Source: a virus
Lineage: Duplodnaviria; Caudoviricetes
DNA: 27,471 nt
Virus record (IMG/VR): IMGVR_UViG_3300048598_000250
Span: 1-27,471 of that record
Reading direction: 5' to 3' (one strand)
Shown: piece after piece, positions 3,118-26,716 of the stretch
Position numbering within the stretch: position 1 is the stretch's first letter
How the letters are laid out: each line of letters starts with the position of its first letter
Position numbers and translations under genes: made by a program
The notes under the pieces: model-generated
What the model saw: only the letters and a program-made list of their open reading frames with translations
What the model was told of the DNA's origin: nothing
Database searches by the model: none

Positions 3118-3340
3118 TTCACTATGCGAAAGCCCACCTTGTCAGTATGTTTAGGTCAAGGTCGGTCGATCGAGCATATTACACAATTCGTGTTCTGTTT
3201 GTTGTGACATGTGCAGACTTAAGTTGTCATGGTGTTATCCGAATGGTAACGACTGCGGGGCACATTCGAGGTAAACTCACGGTGACCCTGAAGGTTGGGG
3301 GCGCGCCGCGGGTGGGAATCGCCGGGCCGAGGAGGACACC

Positions 3341-3559
3341 ATGGAAGGATACGTTGTAGCCAACCCGGGCTGGATGAACTACTCGCTGCACACGGATTGC
3401 TACCCTAAACCAAAGCGCATTTACTTTCGGAACCATGGCCACTCCTACCTCAAACACAACGGCGAGTGGGTGCGCGTGTACTTCAACTACTACTTGTTTA
3501 ACGCAGATGGACAGATCCCGATGCGCCTGAACTCAGACGGAGAATGGGAAATGGCATAA
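3341..3559 (+). CDS. Small hypothetical protein (72 aa, aromatic-rich), first gene of the opposite-strand cassette
   Basis: GAGGAGG RBS 5 nt before ATG. The stop is immediately followed by the hammerhead repeat. Confidence 0.75.
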   Translation: MEGYVVANPGWMNYSLHTDCYPKPKRIYFRNHGHSYLKHNGEWVRVYFNYYLFNADGQIPMRLNSDGEWEMA

Positions 3560-3560
3560 C

Positions 3561-3620
3561 CCCGCCTGACGAGCGCCGGGTCGCCCCCGGCCGAAACCGC
3601 CCACCACGGGCGGTCGCGGG
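3561..3620 (+). ncRNA. Hammerhead ribozyme, type I, canonical core
   Basis: Stem I CCCGC/GCGGG, core CTGACGA (3566-72), stem II G-C plus GCCGGG/CCCGGC, GAAA (3593-96), stem III ACCGCCC/GGGCGGT, GUC triplet with predicted cleavage after C3615. Confidence 0.88.
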
Positions 3621-7128: not shown

Positions 7129-7611
7129 TCACATCCGCTCCGGCGGGTATAATTTCAAATAATAATTTTGAATGACCCCGGAGGCCGGGCTTGTATCCAA
7201 AATGCGCTGCGCGGCCTTGAGCGCGCGGCCATGGAGCTTGAAAATGTACTGCTTCCCGACGTCGCCAAACTGGATCGATATCTGTGGCCATTGCCACTGG
7301 GCGAAGTAGCGCCAGTCGAGGACGTCCCGGTATCGGTCATCTGCGATCTTTGAAATCACGTCTTTGGCAAAATCGCGGTACGCCATTGCGCAATCGATCT
7401 CGCCTTGGAGGCGCTGCTCCAGGTCGATGTAACGAATAACCGCGTTCTCCACCCGGCTTGTTGGGCCGCCACCTCCGCGCGGCTCATCCGAATAGGAAGC
7501 CGTCACGCGCTCGGCCATCGCCTTCGCACGGTCGATCTCGTCGCATTTTGCTTCGATACGCGGGTCGATCCGAACGCACCCGCGGAAGAACTTCTTGGCG
7601 TCAATCTGCAT
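7129..7611 (-). CDS. RinA/ArpU-like phage transcriptional activator (sigma-70 region 4-like HTH)
   Basis: ...RGGGGPTSRVENAV...RYRDVLDWRYFAQWQWPQIS...IFKLHGRAL. Typical position after the nuclease. The start could be 7617. Confidence 0.8.
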   Translation of the reverse strand: MQIDAKKFFRGCVRIDPRIEAKCDEIDRAKAMAERVTASYSDEPRGGGGPTSRVENAVIRYIDLEQRLQGEIDCAMAYRDFAKDVISKIADDRYRDVLDWRYFAQWQWPQISIQFGDVGKQYIFKLHGRALKAAQRILDTSPASGVIQNYYLKLYPPERM

Positions 7612-22979: not shown

Positions 22980-24368
22980 CTATCCCAAAAGGTCGCGCCA
23001 GTTGTCCACGACCTTCTTCGCCAGATCGTCCTTGCGATGGAGTGCCGCCAGGACCTTCTCGTCCACGGTTCCCGGAACCACGAGGTTGATGTAGGTGCAA
23101 GCGTTCCGCTGGCCGATGCGGTGGATGCGGTCCTGGCTTTGGAGGTACTGGCCGAGGCTCCACCCGATGCTGTAGTAGAGCATCGTGTCGGCGGCCGTCA
23201 GAGTCAGTCCCTCCGCGCATGCCTGGATGTTCCCGATGAACACCCGCACGCCCGGGTTGTTCTGGAACTGCTCGACGATCCTGCCGCGCGTCACGGCGTC
23301 AACGCCTCCGCGAATCCCAACAACATGTTCATATGGGCCGAGGTCGCTCAGTGCCTTGTTTGCCCGCGCCATCAGCGCGTCGTACTCGGCCGTGTAGCGG
23401 CAGAAGATCACGAGCTTCCGGCATTCGTCGACGCACAGTGTCTCGATGAGCTCCGTGGCTGCGCCGAGCTTGGCGGTGCTCACGGCGTGCGATTTGCCAT
23501 CGTCATCGGTGAGAAACCCGCCGACGATCTGCTGCAGCCGCAGCAGCTTGGTGAGCACGATGTTCGGGGTCACTGTGCCACCGCTTTCCAGTTCTGCGTA
23601 GCTCTCCTTGCGGATGCGCTCGTAGAGCTTGGCTGCATCGTCCTCGAGCAGCACCGGATGATCCTCGAAGGACTTCTCGGGCAGGTCGAGGCAATCTTTT
23701 TTGCGGACACGAAGCGCAATGCTGTGCATCTTCCGGGTCAGCTCGTCGATGTTCCGCGGTCCAAGGTACTGGTGGTTGCCGTACCCGCCAAAAACGCAGA
23801 ACCGGTTCTGGAACGCGTAGAAGTTCCGCCCGAAGACGTCCGGGGCAAGGAACCGGTACTGCGACCAGATGTCGCGGACGTCCTGCTGCATCGGCGTGCC
23901 GGTCAGAGTGAGCTTGAACTTCGCGGCGTCCCCGAGTCGATGCATCGCCTTGGATTGCGCGGCCGTGTGCCCCTTGATGCGCTGGCTCTCGTCGCAGATG
24001 ATCATGTCCGGGGCGAAAGCGGCAAGCTCGTCCTCGAGGCGCCATGTGCTCTCGTAGTTGATCACCGCGACACGCAGCGGGTCGGTTGCGCCCGCGACAA
24101 CGGGGGCGGTCAGCGCCTTGAGCGCCTTGAGCCGCTTGTCCTTCGTTCCGAGCAGCATCTTCACGCGGTGCGGGAAGTCAGCGAACTTGGCGTACTCCGC
24201 GGGCCAGACCGGGCACACGCTGGACGGCGCGACCACGAGCACGCGCTTGATGTGTCCGTCGAGGTAGAGCCGACCGGTGATGGCGACCGCCGCCAGCGAC
24301 TTGCCGCAACCCATGTCAAGGAAAAGGCCGCACCCGCCCCCGCGCACATTGGATTCCGTTTGAATCAC
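22980..24368 (-). CDS. SNF2-family (SF2) helicase/ATPase, catalytic part from motif I onward
   Basis: DMGCGKS (I), VVAP (Ia), ICDESQRIK (II), LTGTP (III), QSQDRIHRIGQ (VI). Start uncertain (24347-24368). The longer computed ORF only reads through the repeat array. Confidence 0.9.
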   Translation of the reverse strand: MIQTESNVRGGGCGLFLDMGCGKSLAAVAITGRLYLDGHIKRVLVVAPSSVCPVWPAEYAKFADFPHRVKMLLGTKDKRLKALKALTAPVVAGATDPLRVAVINYESTWRLEDELAAFAPDMIICDESQRIKGHTAAQSKAMHRLGDAAKFKLTLTGTPMQQDVRDIWSQYRFLAPDVFGRNFYAFQNRFCVFGGYGNHQYLGPRNIDELTRKMHSIALRVRKKDCLDLPEKSFEDHPVLLEDDAAKLYERIRKESYAELESGGTVTPNIVLTKLLRLQQIVGGFLTDDDGKSHAVSTAKLGAATELIETLCVDECRKLVIFCRYTAEYDALMARANKALSDLGPYEHVVGIRGGVDAVTRGRIVEQFQNNPGVRVFIGNIQACAEGLTLTAADTMLYYSIGWSLGQYLQSQDRIHRIGQRNACTYINLVVPGTVDEKVLAALHRKDDLAKKVVDNWRDLLG

Positions 24369-24398: not shown

Positions 24399-25137
24399 GT
24401 GGAGAGGGGCTTTGACGATAAACCTCTCAGAACGCCTTGCCAGACCGTGCCAGACCGTGCCACGCCGAACCGAGCCGAGCCGGATCCAACCTTGCCTATC
24501 CATACATTGCCTATCCTTACCAAACCCCACCTCGCCCAGCATTGGCTTGCAGTGCCCTGCCTTGTTGGTGGAGAGAGGCTTTGACGATAAACCCCTCGGA
24601 ACGCCATACCAGACCAGACCCCGCCATTCCCCGCCTTGCAATGCCGTAGCAAGCCGTGCCAGGATGTGGATGGGGGCTTTGTCGATGAACCCCCAAGAAC
24701 GCCGTACCCTGCCTCGCCTCGTCTCGCCTCGTCTCACCACGCCTCGCCCCGCCCTGCCTCTCCATTCCATTCCATTCCATACCATGCCTTGTGATGGATG
24801 GGGGCTTTGACGATGAACCCCCAAGAACGCCGTACCATGCTCCGCCGTGCATAACCGCGCCTGGCCTTACATTTCCCCAGACTGCCTCATCACGCCGCGC
24901 CGAACCATGCTTCTCCGTACCACGCCCCGCATCGCCCTGCCCCTCCGGGCCTAGCCAGAGGCTGCCATGCCAGGTTGTGGATGGGGGCTTTGACGATGAA
25001 CCCCCAAGAACGCCGTGCCATGCATTGTCCTACCATGCCTGACCACTCCTTGCCCTGCCCTGCCTCGCCTCACATCACCACGCCATACCGTGCCTTGCAA
25101 TGGAGGGCGGCTTTGTCGCGAAACCGCCCAGAACGGG
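24399..25137 (-). ncRNA. Array of five putative guide-RNA units: phased (GGY-NN)n tracts separated by a 38-nt hairpin repeat (VIPR-like)
   Basis: Repeats at 24399-436, 24568-605, 24666-703, 24794-831, 24977-25014, 25100-137. Pentamer tracts at 24437-561 (25 units), 24606-660 (11), 24704-788 (17), 24832-971 (28), 25015-094 (16). The array begins 1 nt after the stop of the RAMP-like gene. Confidence 0.85.
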
Positions 25138-25138
25138 G

Positions 25139-25765
25139 TTAGTCCTCGGTGAGAACCGAGAAGCTGTCAAGCTGGAACCGACCGAAGCTCGGCCGGAAGT
25201 CACCGATGCCGATCAAGCGCCCAGCGTTGGTGACCAGCATGTGCAGCATCTGGGGGGTGATGTACTCGGCCAGAACCACCTGCATGATGAATTCCAGCGA
25301 CCAGCCGGTGTTCATGGCGGGCCGGACCCGCGTGATGGCGTTGCGCTGAATGACCACGCGCCGCCGGTCGAGGTAGTCGGGGTCCGCGACGCCGAAGGAG
25401 GCGAACTCGGTGAAGCTGATGACGCCCGCACGGAGCAGGTCCATCGCGCTCTTGCGCGGCGAACGGGGGTCCTGCAGATACTTGCCCGCGTGAACGATGC
25501 TCTGCTTCAGGTACTCGCCGGGGATGGCGATGGTGCCGTCGGTCGCCCGGTACATGTAGCTCTCGAGATCGTCGGACTTCTTGGCCTTGGAGCCCTTCGC
25601 TGCCTTGCCCTTCTCCTCGACTGCCTCGGCGCAGTACCGGTGCATGAGGATGGGCGCCGTGCCCGAGATTCTGATTGCCGCGCTGTAGGGCGGGGTGATG
25701 GAATTCTCCGCGCCGTTGCTGATCTGATCGTCCGCCAGATTGGTTGCCGTTGCTTTGCGTGCCAT
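25139..25765 (-). CDS. Stand-alone RAMP/Cas7-like RNA-binding protein (208 aa), putative effector of the adjacent array (Vipr-like)
   Basis: N-terminal strand IRISGTAPILMH, IPGEYLKQSI (compare Csm3/Cmr4 IPGSSLKG), C-terminal Gly-rich loop AGRLIGIGDFRPSFGRF. Strong GGGAGAGG RBS. Flanked by the repeats. Confidence 0.8.
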   Translation of the reverse strand: MARKATATNLADDQISNGAENSITPPYSAAIRISGTAPILMHRYCAEAVEEKGKAAKGSKAKKSDDLESYMYRATDGTIAIPGEYLKQSIVHAGKYLQDPRSPRKSAMDLLRAGVISFTEFASFGVADPDYLDRRRVVIQRNAITRVRPAMNTGWSLEFIMQVVLAEYITPQMLHMLVTNAGRLIGIGDFRPSFGRFQLDSFSVLTED

Positions 25766-25804
25766 GATATGTACCTCTCCCTTTTTGGATTGCCCTTGTG
25801 GGCT

Positions 25805-25842
25805 GTGGATGGGGGCTTTGTCGGTAAACCCCCAAGAACGCT
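25805..25842 (-). repeat. Isolated copy of the 38-nt hairpin repeat in the 5' leader of the RAMP-like gene
   Basis: Plus strand GTGGATGGGGGCTTTGTCGGTAAACCCCCAAGAACGC, with no pentamer tract attached. Confidence 0.85.
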
Positions 25843-25857
25843 CGGGCGATTTTTCAG

Positions 25858-26196
25858 TTACTCCAATCCGAAGAGGCTCCTCTGCGCTTCTTTGCCCGCC
25901 AGTCTATCCCTGAGCAGATGTGGTAGGAGCGGATAGTCTTCCGCGCAGTTTTCGATGAGCGCGTCGAGCGCCGTAAGCATCGTGTGCGTGCTGAAAGTAC
26001 CAAGGATCCCGACTTGCGTCGACGGGCGCGGATCACCGTCTTCCGACGTATCTCCCCTCTTGCGAACTGCGATGAGTACGCCCTCACCTTCGGTTTCGTG
26101 GTTGACCACCTCTCCGGTTTGCAGGTTCGTAAGAACAATCGTCACCTTGACATGGTCCGCTTGCTCGTCCGGCTGGCCTTTCATAATCTCTTCCAT
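25858..26196 (-). CDS. Hypothetical protein (112 aa) embedded between two repeats
   Basis: AAGGGAG RBS before MEEIMKG. Ends in QRSLFGLE. Confidence 0.7.
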   Translation of the reverse strand: MEEIMKGQPDEQADHVKVTIVLTNLQTGEVVNHETEGEGVLIAVRKRGDTSEDGDPRPSTQVGILGTFSTHTMLTALDALIENCAEDYPLLPHLLRDRLAGKEAQRSLFGLE

Positions 26197-26236
26197 TGTC
26201 AATCTCCCTTCTTGGTTTGCCCGTCTCATGCGGGTC

Positions 26237-26334
26237 GTGGATGGGGGCTTTGTCGGTGAACCCCCAAGAACGCCGTGCCTCGCCGTACCATTCCCTGGAT
26301 CGCCTTGCCGGGCCCTTCCATACCTGGCCTTTCC
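26237..26334 (-). ncRNA. Sixth, upstream unit: 12 phased pentamers plus hairpin repeat
   Basis: Tract 26275-26334 (GGAAA GGCCA GGTAT GGAAG GGCCC GGCAA...) followed by the repeat at 26237-274. Confidence 0.8.
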
Positions 26335-26344
26335 CGAAAAACTG

Positions 26345-26716
26345 TTATCCGTTTGGCACCTCGTATCCAAAGAGCGCCAATGCGATGTTTACGGCTTGAA
26401 CCTGATGCTGGTAAAGTCGAATTCCAGGCTTCAGCGGAATCGGCGCGATCGGTTCAACCGTCTTCGCCAGCTTCTGCCGCTCAATGAATTCATGAACGCG
26501 CACGATCCGTTTTACCTCTGCCAAAATCTCCGGGGTGAACCCGGCGCCTACCCCGCGCAGAATGTTGATGCTCTCGATGGTCAAAGGCATGTTCCACTGC
26601 CTTATGGGCATCTTGGGGCTGCGGGTCGCGCCCGGAAGCTTCGCGGCCACGAGCGCGCTCTCCGGGTCGGACGCAATCCGAATCCCGCCGCCGGGGGCGA
26701 TCGTTGCGCGGATCAT
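26345..26716 (-). CDS. Protein resembling the N-terminal part (Q-motif) of a split SNF2 helicase
   Basis: Ends PIPLKPGIRLYQHQVQAVNIALALFG, like the segment that normally precedes helicase motif I. Confidence 0.65.
   Translation of the reverse strand: MIRATIAPGGGIRIASDPESALVAAKLPGATRSPKMPIRQWNMPLTIESINILRGVGAGFTPEILAEVKRIVRVHEFIERQKLAKTVEPIAPIPLKPGIRLYQHQVQAVNIALALFGYEVPNG

Follow-up and report, generated by a model that had tools for sequence, protein, structure and literature searches.

The window analysed here, the whole stretch of 27,471 nucleotides of a viral record (Duplodnaviria; Caudoviricetes), carries a minus-strand locus that is almost certainly a VIPR system. Its 208-aa reading frame matches the SUSP1 Vipr 36pp_D (E 6.6e-9 with the single sequence, 5.3e-12 with profile A1), which was its sole match in the PDB, and a Pfam search of this frame returned no match. 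Residues H42, K57, R148 and D189-F190-R191 align with H17, K33, R138 and D177-W178-R179 of the SUSP1 protein (numbering by hand), and across 78 homologs they are either invariant or conserved to at least 90%. Guide-binding roles of these SUSP1 residues are described in the available text of the VIPR preprints (bioRxiv 10.64898/2026.04.26.720920,.720927), where Vipr is a RAMP protein. Altogether 6062 homologs of the window Vipr were found; a single-protein scan of viral contigs yielded none confirmed of 4 candidates, and the Vipr profile run over 2 and 401 genomes recovered the seed genomes only.

The neighbouring 112-aa ORF has no match in Pfam, no tblastn match among the matches listed, and Atlas neighbours restricted to unnamed viral or Bacillota clusters with scores below 0.9. 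An SNF2 helicase frame lies past the terminal repeat copy and its hairpin. A rejoining of the split helicase at the 8-nt direct repeat that flanks it was considered and given up, as its two frames are not the same.

Six GGYNN tracts of 11, 16, 28, 17, 11 and 25 units adjoin a 38-base repeat that occurs in eight copies, all on the minus strand (Table 1). Two of these tracts (25 and 28 units) exceed the range of 9-16 units given in the available text of the preprints. A repeat copy follows every tract in phase (6/6), and six copies are arranged around five tracts, the first of them directly after the vipr stop codon. This N+1 geometry is CRISPR-like, and the role as guide delimiter that the initial annotation suggested is probable. 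In 9 loci a leader copy lies immediately behind a stop codon or spans it; a copy is missing in front of four first tracts (window g0, that of L037 and the upstream ones of L068 and L176), which speaks against the cut model proposed below. Downstream of copy 2 come a small hairpin and the start region of vipr. A comparison of the six guides with 1.72 Mb of collected loci and the window, under a 1-nt skip rule, gave no match above background.

Table 1. Features of the VIPR locus in the window, with the predicted fold of repeat copy 4.
Feature	Position	Strand	Remarks
GGYNN tract g0	26275..26329	-	11 units (8 GGY); upstream guide, no repeat before
Repeat copy 1	26237..26274	-	predicted pseudoknot + UCCA; CCA 26240-26238; small hairpin then 112-aa ORF
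112-aa ORF	25858..26196	-	between the first two repeat copies; candidate accessory (vap) gene, no family
Repeat copy 2	25805..25842	-	orphan, no tract; 15 nt past 112-aa ORF stop
vipr gene	25139..25765	-	208 aa; RAMP of VIPR system, by homology to SUSP1 Vipr
Repeat copy 3	25100..25137	-	leader, compensatory stem; between vipr stop and first array tract
GGYNN tract g1	25015..25094	-	16 units (12 GGY)
Repeat copy 4	24977..25014	-	consensus
Copy 4, predicted S1 core	25012-25011 with 24995-24994	-	
Copy 4, predicted loop 1	25010-25007	-	
Copy 4, predicted S2	25006-24998 with 24990-24982	-	
Copy 4, predicted discriminator	24981	-	
Copy 4, CCA	24980-24978	-	
GGYNN tract g2	24832..24971	-	28 units (17 GGY)
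Repeat copy 5	24794..24831	-	
GGYNN tract g3	24704..24788	-	17 units (11 GGY)
Repeat copy 6	24666..24703	-	
GGYNN tract g4	24606..24660	-	11 units (8 GGY)
Repeat copy 7	24568..24605	-	two compensatory pairs + one G-U
GGYNN tract g5	24437..24561	-	25 units (18 GGY)
Repeat copy 8	24399..24436	-	terminal, A-C stem mismatch; small hairpin 24398-24385 then SNF2 helicase frame

The copies differ from the 25014 copy (copy 4) at 0-9 of 35 bases, against 14 differences at the next-best site of the window. The previously proposed consensus is exactly this copy, and the CGTTC (positions 3-7) and TCCA (34-37) that had been called invariant are present in all eight. Continuation of the pentamer phase by the initial GGCGT, likewise claimed, holds in the six tract-following copies and fails in the 25842 and 25137 copies, which follow stop codons and begin AGCGT and CCCGT, respectively. 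No Rfam family matches the repeat, and literature searches found no description of the element. A weak RAGATH-32 match of Rfam near the window copies (E 1.4, opposite strand) was rejected.

The stem covaries among the eight copies: pair 9-33 is U-A in five and G-C in three, pair 10-32 is G-C in six and A-U in two, and pair 12-30 is G-C in five and C-G, G-U and A-C in one each, while U15-G27 is common to all. The stem covariation and minus-strand orientation of the initial annotation are thereby confirmed, as are the compensatory stem of the 25100-25137 copy and the strand preference of the G-U pair in the 24568 copy (-11.3 kcal/mol versus -6.9 on the plus strand). Its GAGAGG/CCTCTC pairing in the 24399 copy is not: the in-register 3' arm reads CCCCTC, which gives an A-C mismatch, CCTCTC comes to pair only if it slips by 2 bases and uses up the "invariant" TC, and the fold of this copy is no better than that of shuffles (z -0.31). 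A covariance model scores the eight copies, which lie within its training set, at 36.9-42.2 bits, compared to 10.6 for the next site. As individual copies show just a modest gain in stability over shuffles (z -1.7 to -2.6) and the plus-strand fold of the consensus repeat is equally good, the evidence for structure is covariation and not energy. We conclude that the repeat has been selected as an RNA structure of the minus strand.

The plain hairpin of the earlier reading nevertheless is incomplete, and the covariation points to a pseudoknot. According to our model the repeat very probably folds into an H-type pseudoknot, in which the "invariant" CG of the 5' flank would pair with the loop. The knot stem would consist of positions 3-4 paired to 20-21, extending at most to 1-4 and 20-23, and the long stem of positions 9-16/17 paired to 25/26-33. 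The A run and the U-rich loop 1 probably engage in base triples, and stacking of one stem on the other would yield about 11-13 bp, resembling an acceptor plus T stem. At least two Watson-Crick pairs between flank and loop are found in 26 of the 29 distinct copies from VIPR loci, compared to 15.3 after shuffling. A search pattern that left the knot pairs unspecified recovered 83 distinct phage sequences, 67 of them with an intact stem, and both core knot pairs are kept in 52 of these 67 versus 3 of 12 chance matches. Among the 83 unfiltered sequences, pair 4-20 is paired in 68 (12 both-side changes) and pair 3-21 in 67 (20 both-side changes); with one sequence per flank cluster the value is 18.7/22, with p at the 0.001 floor. 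The outer knot pairs are weak (2-22 is paired in 30/83), and the knot type GG/CC is common to 15 of the 22 clusters. In the mixed alignment A3, RNAalifold recovered just 4 pairs, since the stems had been misregistered by MAFFT; the analysis relied instead on the ungapped alignments A4 and A7 and on alignment-free tests. Longer tails in Alicyclobacillus (L114, L123) resemble the same knot with an inserted hairpin and ACCA; they lack a covariance-model match and are excluded from all counts.

The long stem is followed by one unpaired base and then by CCA, which is the arrangement of a tRNA acceptor end. Judged by sequence, the invariant TCCA is a tRNA-type discriminator plus CCA. Stem, unpaired discriminator and CCA occur together in all eight window copies and in seven of nine held-out sequences, the latter being the distinct new sequences returned by a pattern with neither CCA nor knot specified, of which seven have both features and two have neither. 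In VIPR-locus copies that have it, the CCA lies 10-13 nt past the A run. It is kept in 22/23 guide-preceding copies of VIPR loci versus 3/9 terminal ones (Fisher p 6e-4, with roles labelled by hand; L011a and L011c were scored by TCCA after the stem, as the automatic rule mis-anchored there). The CCA therefore matters for the downstream unit, as expected of a cut signal. In L399 the element occupies the position that tRNA-Leu holds in L384, L395, L412 and L419, with ACCA in register and the same downstream RNA. We interpret the repeat as a likely tRNA-end mimic that is handled by host tRNA enzymes, among which RNase P is the most probable. Several features speak against a tRNA-like RNase P substrate: the 38 nt contain no T-loop or elbow, the discriminator is mostly a pyrimidine (T39, C15, G7 and A6 in the 67 stem-intact sequences), and the purine of an RCCA motif is present in 13/67 only.

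Nearly all of the 83 element sequences have no Vipr nearby. The element sits after stop codons in 52 of 67 sequences and is also found in tRNA arrays, and neighbouring intergenic gaps sometimes hold ribozymes, with matches to pistol (L369, 68 bits), hammerhead or twister, which speaks for the element being equivalent to a cut site. Among 119 element loci a vipr match is present in L469 (= L011) only, and none of the other 65 stem-intact sequences (17 loci below 2 kb) has more than 4 GGY per 10-unit window. A 94%-complete phage record carrying the element lacks Vipr, with a positive control in the same search, and most Vipr relatives are devoid of the element. The best reading is that phages used this portable element as a general cut mark before VIPR arose, and that a single Vipr clade co-opted it to separate guides. 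These distributions also bear on a cut by Vipr or the 112-aa ORF in the manner of Cas6, for which the N+1 layout and the RAMP nature of Vipr might speak; we regard it as highly improbable and reject a Cas6-type reading on the commonness of the element without Vipr. No Cas6-like ORF was recognised in the window. Processing by the RAMP itself, one branch of the initial annotation, is likewise unsupported because the same element is common in phage loci without Vipr or GGYNN tract, and its other branch, a putative cleavage by a host RNase, is the supported one.

Broader searches added little. An exact window-type pattern returned no relatives; one tract-plus-element pattern gave 0 matches and the other 3, without vipr or array and judged to be chance. 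Model scans of 151 + 151 genomes produced 5 and 7 new single marginal matches (E 0.001-0.01), which were left unused, and missed the known positive G002. The one sequencing run, X1, consists of contigs, probably of DNA, with a 0.07 share, and shows no RNA ends; its loose ends hint at a further related copy behind a stop codon, which is uncounted.

A small H-type pseudoknot is cleaved within its loop 1 by bacterial RNase P, and this cleavage depends on a 3' RCCA (PMC12710915). By analogy, host RNase P would pair with the NCCA of the repeat and cut at the end of loop 1, between positions 8/9 (25007/25006 in copy 4), which would divide the long transcript into single guides and mRNAs. The stem-CCA hairpin would remain on each guide as a protected 5' head, with the GGYNN tract of the guide coated by Vipr. 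Both enzyme and cut site are what we infer, and a specific loop-1 cut by RNase P is a tentative proposal. Pseudoknot substrates are cut much less efficiently than hairpins by RNase P in vitro (PMC12710915), so that RNase P by itself does not account for selection of the knot. Cutting in loop 1 would, moreover, destroy the pseudoknot, which speaks against this model; in SUSP1, according to the available preprint text, an intact pseudoknot forms the cap at the guide's 3' end.

It is less likely, but a serious alternative, that the same mimic is cut just 3' of CCA by an RNase Z/BN-type or RNase Y-type enzyme, followed by trimming to CCA, and that the upstream guide or mRNA retains the intact pseudoknot-CCA as a 3' cap, like the SUSP1 tail. 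The H-type topology is that of the tails in Alf5, a SUSP1 relative, in which the first stem also starts in the last pentamer, and SUSP1 filaments, in the text available, resolve first next to the 3' pseudoknot. A second hairpin after the CCA (39 of the 67 stem-intact sequences versus 1 of 12 chance matches, and all three ORF-preceding window copies) fits such a cut better than one in loop 1; T. maritima RNase Z cleaves right after CCA, and the knot is kept in terminal copies. However, CCA acts as an inhibitor of the RNase Z of B. subtilis (PMC7479834) and, where related loci have a named host, it belongs to the Bacillota, no copy lies past the last tract in L011, L164 and L165, and a pure CCA-capped 3' end should keep its CCA in terminal copies, where it is lost in 6/9.

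The element might also represent a new, very small class of self-cleaving ribozyme, as it is compact, knotted and Vipr-independent and takes the same post-stop slot as pistol, twister and hammerhead in phage operons; type I and V VIPR arrays, in the available preprint text, use hammerheads as separators. We consider this improbable, since no Rfam ribozyme model overlaps the element, its constant bases (UU, A run, CCA) are explained by triples plus tRNA mimicry, and it replaces a tRNA with CCA in register. Its 37-38 nt also fall below the size of classical natural nucleolytic ribozymes. The CCA, as read from the sequence, points to a host enzyme rather than to self-cleavage. Similarly doubtful is a mere stabilising end structure or Vipr loading handle that marks no cut of its own, with ends left by termination or by general decay that stalls at the knot and at RNA covered by Vipr. 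Such a role would agree with the constant structured cap formed by the published vrRNA tail (as far as its available description goes) and with the post-stop position (52/67), where 3' stabilisers sit, but it leaves the fixed-distance CCA, its terminal loss and the leader copies before the first guide unexplained. An intrinsic terminator was rejected: no U tract follows the stem, none of the eight copies was called, and the region has 2 sites versus 2.8 expected.

Returning to the tRNA-end mimic, we give nearly even chances to the full proposal that a minimal tRNA-end-mimicking pseudoknot punctuates a natural guide array, is cleaved in vivo by host RNase P and is interchangeable with tRNAs and ribozymes across many phages. 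The available text of the VIPR preprints is silent on how constant-tailed guides are cut from the array, and the locus offers a testable answer for one clade, in which host tRNA-processing machinery would be borrowed via a 38-nt mimic. The targeting of pseudoknots by RNase P in vivo is an open question (PMC12710915), for which the repeat family, with dozens of sequence variants, is a natural candidate. RNA-guided arrays would be linked to the general use that phages make of ribozymes and tRNA-like modules as operon punctuation and, if true, the repeat would be a very compact separator for multiplexed guides in laboratory strains.

With the 3' pseudoknot tail of SUSP1-clade type II vrRNA, as far as described in the available text, the window shares a Vipr homolog, GGYNN tracts, a phage location and a constant structured element after the tract, H-type and with an A-rich third loop. 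The window repeat differs in its short first stem, long second stem and N-CCA end, and in its occurrence also before the first guide and between genes; covariance model R1 found no match in L158, which has the Alf5 tail, at E up to 1. The VIPR layouts described in that text are staggered, hammerhead-interspersed or single-vrRNA, and none is tRNA-like (bioRxiv 10.64898/2026.04.26.720920,.720927). CRISPR direct repeats with Cas6 are likewise N+1 structured repeats that delimit variable guides beside a RAMP gene; unlike there, the guides here consist of pentamers in tracts 55-140 nt long, and the element is also found in the absence of any RAMP.

The acceptor arm of the TYMV tRNA-like structure and an RCCA-tagged model pseudoknot are H-type with a second stem ending in N-CCA, like the repeat, and in vitro RNase P accepts them as substrates and cleaves them in loop 1 (PMC12710915). 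The repeat, a putative substrate of 37-38 nt, is by contrast internal in a bacterial phage transcript, lacks T-loop and anticodon arm and has a mostly pyrimidine discriminator. RNA elements likewise punctuate phage transcripts in hammerhead-interspersed VIPR arrays (types I and V) and, as theta ribozymes, beside gut-phage tRNAs, according to the available texts (for the latter, PMC10879173). The repeat shares its intergenic slot with pistol, twister and hammerhead and, unlike them, matches no ribozyme model. The tRNA-like ends of MALAT1 and MEN-beta and the C4 RNA of phages P1/P7 use cloverleaf-type or larger folds, whereas the repeat is a minimal knot that recurs through a guide array. These RNAs are matured by RNase P in the available account (PMC4919922) and resemble the repeat in the principle that we propose for it, by which a tRNA-like fold would recruit tRNA-processing nucleases to set the ends of the neighbouring RNA.

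On sequence grounds, the window (a linear virus record with a completeness estimate of 57%) contains a VIPR locus. The central ORF has no match in Pfam and a sole PDB match, SUSP1 Vipr (E 6.6e-9 as a single sequence, 5.3e-12 with a 78-sequence profile), whose GGY-binding residues align with conserved positions in the window protein. Six GGYNN tracts of 11-28 units all run in phase into a repeat. In the VIPR preprints, guide RNAs (vrRNAs) comprise 9-16 pentamers followed by a constant structured 3' tail (10.64898/2026.04.26.720920), which is a pseudoknot in the SUSP1 clade (10.64898/2026.04.26.720920, 10.64898/2026.04.26.720927), and other types show staggered, hammerhead-interspersed or single-guide layouts (10.64898/2026.04.26.720920). 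The window system is thus already known in kind. Related loci have named hosts in Oscillospiraceae, Clostridia, Alicyclobacillus and Bacillota; as these are Bacillota groups, we infer a Bacillota host for the window.

Coordinates of features in the window and in retrieved loci (L plus number)
Feature	Coordinates	Observation
38-nt repeat, eight copies	window 26274 to 24399 (minus)	Clear gap to background in sequence comparison and in a covariance-model scan of the window
Copies without a preceding tract	window 25842, 25137	Both follow stop codons
Vipr ORF	window 25139-25765	
Repeat-like stretch	window 26330-26347 (minus)	Right after the upstream ORF's stop; flank plus runs of T and of G resemble the 5' repeat half; may be the remnant of a leader for g0, the upstream tract
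SNF2 helicase gene, split by the VIPR cassette	window 26345-26716, 22980-24362 (minus)	ORF 26345-26716 matches, by its C-terminus, the helicase N-terminus, contiguous in L037; remainder downstream of copy 8
8-nt direct repeat	window 26355-26348, 24362-24355	At both helicase junctions, in differing frames
Two repeat copies	L136:1444-1481, 1917-1955	Each follows a stop codon, roughly 1 kb 3' of vipr; no tract; three knot pairs, TCCA and a trailing hairpin in both
Longer element version, hairpin inserted in loop	L114:2713-2775, 2896-2955; L123	Alicyclobacillus VIPR; ACCA in internal copies, ACA in the copy upstream of vipr; first tract preceded by a different structured leader
Second, U/A-rich hairpin upstream of tracts	L158:950-980, 2215-2240, 2360-2395	Phage Alf5; candidate 5' processing mark unlike the 38-nt element
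Sub-threshold twister-like/hammerhead-like intergenic RNAs	L366:7018-7078, 7438-7492; L368 ~3170-3610	Phage operons; may be ribozyme variants missed by Rfam models

The helicase interrupted by the cassette is split at the same point in L011 by an HNH-like ORF.

The initial annotation had read the repeat as a covarying hairpin, which holds for three stem pairs that change with compensation among the window copies, U15-G27 being constant; the pairing described for the copy at 24399 was wrong, its stem having an A-C mismatch in register. Folding of the window copies on the minus strand gave z of -0.3 to -2.6, and folding energy by itself is weak evidence. None of the copies is terminator-like, and that reading was rejected.

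Comparison across loci identifies the repeat as a predicted pseudoknot, in which the 5' flank pairs with the loop (core pairs 4-20 and 3-21). Flank and loop covary (CG/CG, GG/CC, CC/GG, GC/GC, AG/CT): at least two Watson-Crick flank-loop pairs are present in 26 of 29 distinct hand-picked copies, against 15.3 after shuffling and 5 with the flank shifted 5 nt upstream; when each locus contributes a single copy (n=11), the median p is 0.004. As these copies were hand-picked, held-out tests were run. A first pattern, with knot and CCA both unspecified, retrieved 15 loci, which after L343 (the same as L011) was dropped gave nine distinct sequences; seven have both core pairs together with CCA at positions 35-37, and two have neither. 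A second pattern specified the CCA but neither the knot nor four of the stem pairs; it matched at least 119 loci (about 160 estimated), and the matches listed number 124, or 83 distinct sequences. All three free inner stem positions are paired in 67 of these 83, two in 4, and one or none in 12, the last being the chance hits used for comparison. Among the matches listed, both core pairs are Watson-Crick in 52/67, 2/4 and 3/12 by falling stem intactness (Fisher p 7e-4). Across all 83 listed sequences, unfiltered, the covariation score was 0.397 (0.126 shuffled, at most 0.149 slid) and that of the knot only 0.393 (0.210 shuffled, at most 0.175 slid), the shuffles ignoring relatedness. One sequence per flank cluster (22 clusters) yielded 18.7/22, with p at the 0.001 floor and GG/CC common to 15 clusters. 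The outer knot pairs are weak. Base triples occur in H-type knots, and tRNA has a 12-bp acceptor-plus-T stack. The first stem pair (9-33) is replaced by a C-A mismatch in 17 of the 65 held-out elements, possibly one clade, which resembles the C1-A72 mismatch of initiator tRNA.

Retrieval of loci with Vipr relatives gave 316; pooled with two annotated phages and the window, they reduced to 220 distinct ones, most of which separate their tracts by means other than the 38-nt element. Downstream of vipr in L004, L012, L013, L023 and L024, long tracts are broken either by very small tetraloop hairpins or by phase shifts of 1-12 nt, in place of the element; upstream of vipr in L287, pentamer tract and gene lie on opposite strands. 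A search of 199 loci (L243-L322 not among them) with model R1, for which 30 copies picked by hand were the training set, matched 11 distinct loci with E no higher than 0.1. Ten of these were training loci and L136 was new; L007 was joined by eye. Those placed in the tree fall into one clade of 41 sequences including the window (support 0.86), which also contains loci without the element.

A leader copy, upstream of the first tract and right after or across a stop codon, is present in nine loci (window, L007, L011, L084, L164, L165, L166, L176, L215). The first tract lacks a preceding copy in the window (g0), L037 and the upstream tracts of L068 and L176, and the last tract lacks a downstream copy in L011, L164 and L165. 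The two tract-less window copies misfit a simple 3' tail, since both trail stop codons. Among VIPR-locus copies, the stem is followed by CCA in 22/23 of those preceding a tract versus 3/9 terminal ones, those after the last tract (p 6e-4; roles hand-labelled, two rows scored from the flank-loop comparison, orphan copy 25842 excluded). This retention before tracts and frequent loss in terminal copies suggests a CCA-dependent cut that would free the downstream unit.

The element also occurs outside VIPR. A vipr match was found in only one (L469, the same as L011) of at least 119 second-pattern loci, no GGYNN tract near the other 65 stem-intact sequences (17 loci under 2 kb), and no Vipr in the element-bearing whole records G407-G411 (28-68% complete) and G412 (94%), with G414 as positive control. 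A Cas6-like role for Vipr at the repeat is unlikely. Among the matches listed, the element lies at most 25 nt after the stop of a frame 30 or more codons long in 52/67 stem-intact sequences versus 4/12 chance hits, and a hairpin follows the CCA in 39/67 versus 1/12.

Pistol ribozymes occupy the next two intergenic gaps in G411 (68 bits, threshold 34.5), and G408 has sub-threshold twister-P5 matches in two later gaps; 40 chosen loci gave a ribozyme match on the same strand in three, of which one exceeds the threshold, and tRNA matches in five. From this genomic context a new ribozyme is a possible reading of the element, though at 37-38 nt it is smaller than the classical natural nucleolytic ribozymes. 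ARAGORN found tRNAs in 7/18 loci picked for follow-up. In L399 the element occupies the tRNA-Leu slot of four relatives, with ACCA in register and nearly identical downstream RNA; because the upstream sequence differs, we interpret the exchange as a module swap. Another copy ends a few bases upstream of tRNA-Met in L399 and L412. Phage tRNA/ncRNA arrays surround the match in L384, L385, L395, L399, L412, L419 and L377; they contain several structured, unannotated units that end in CCA with 0-3 nt between neighbours, and L385 has RAGATH-33.

These comparisons establish, at the level of sequence, the fold by covariation, the CCA position, the layout and the independence from Vipr. A host tRNA-processing nuclease would cut at the element, RNase P being by analogy the best candidate. 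RNase P cuts a small H-type pseudoknot in vitro in loop 1, RCCA-dependently and inefficiently (PMC12710915), and is the maturation enzyme for a number of non-tRNA and phage RNAs (PMC4919922); Bacillus subtilis RNase Z is inhibited by CCA (PMC7479834). A close rival is a cut 3' of the CCA, after which the knot would remain as a 3' cap like that of SUSP1, in line with the hairpins downstream of CCA, the SUSP1 structure and Thermotoga maritima RNase Z, which cuts after CCA (PMC7479834). Between RNase P cutting in loop 1 and a cut after CCA, sequence cannot choose.

No Rfam family covers the element, and no published description was found in a search mostly outside subscription journals. The accessible text of the VIPR preprints yielded nothing on maturation of this kind, and this clade may be shown in their Fig. 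S17 or data S4. The repeat is a real feature, punctuating a VIPR array as a predicted tRNA-end-like pseudoknot that is apparently undescribed. By reading of sequence, the tails of Alf5, a phage related to SUSP1, share the strand order of the repeat, but gave no model match. The VIPR system itself is known; what apparently differs here is the putative tRNA-end-like separator in the array.
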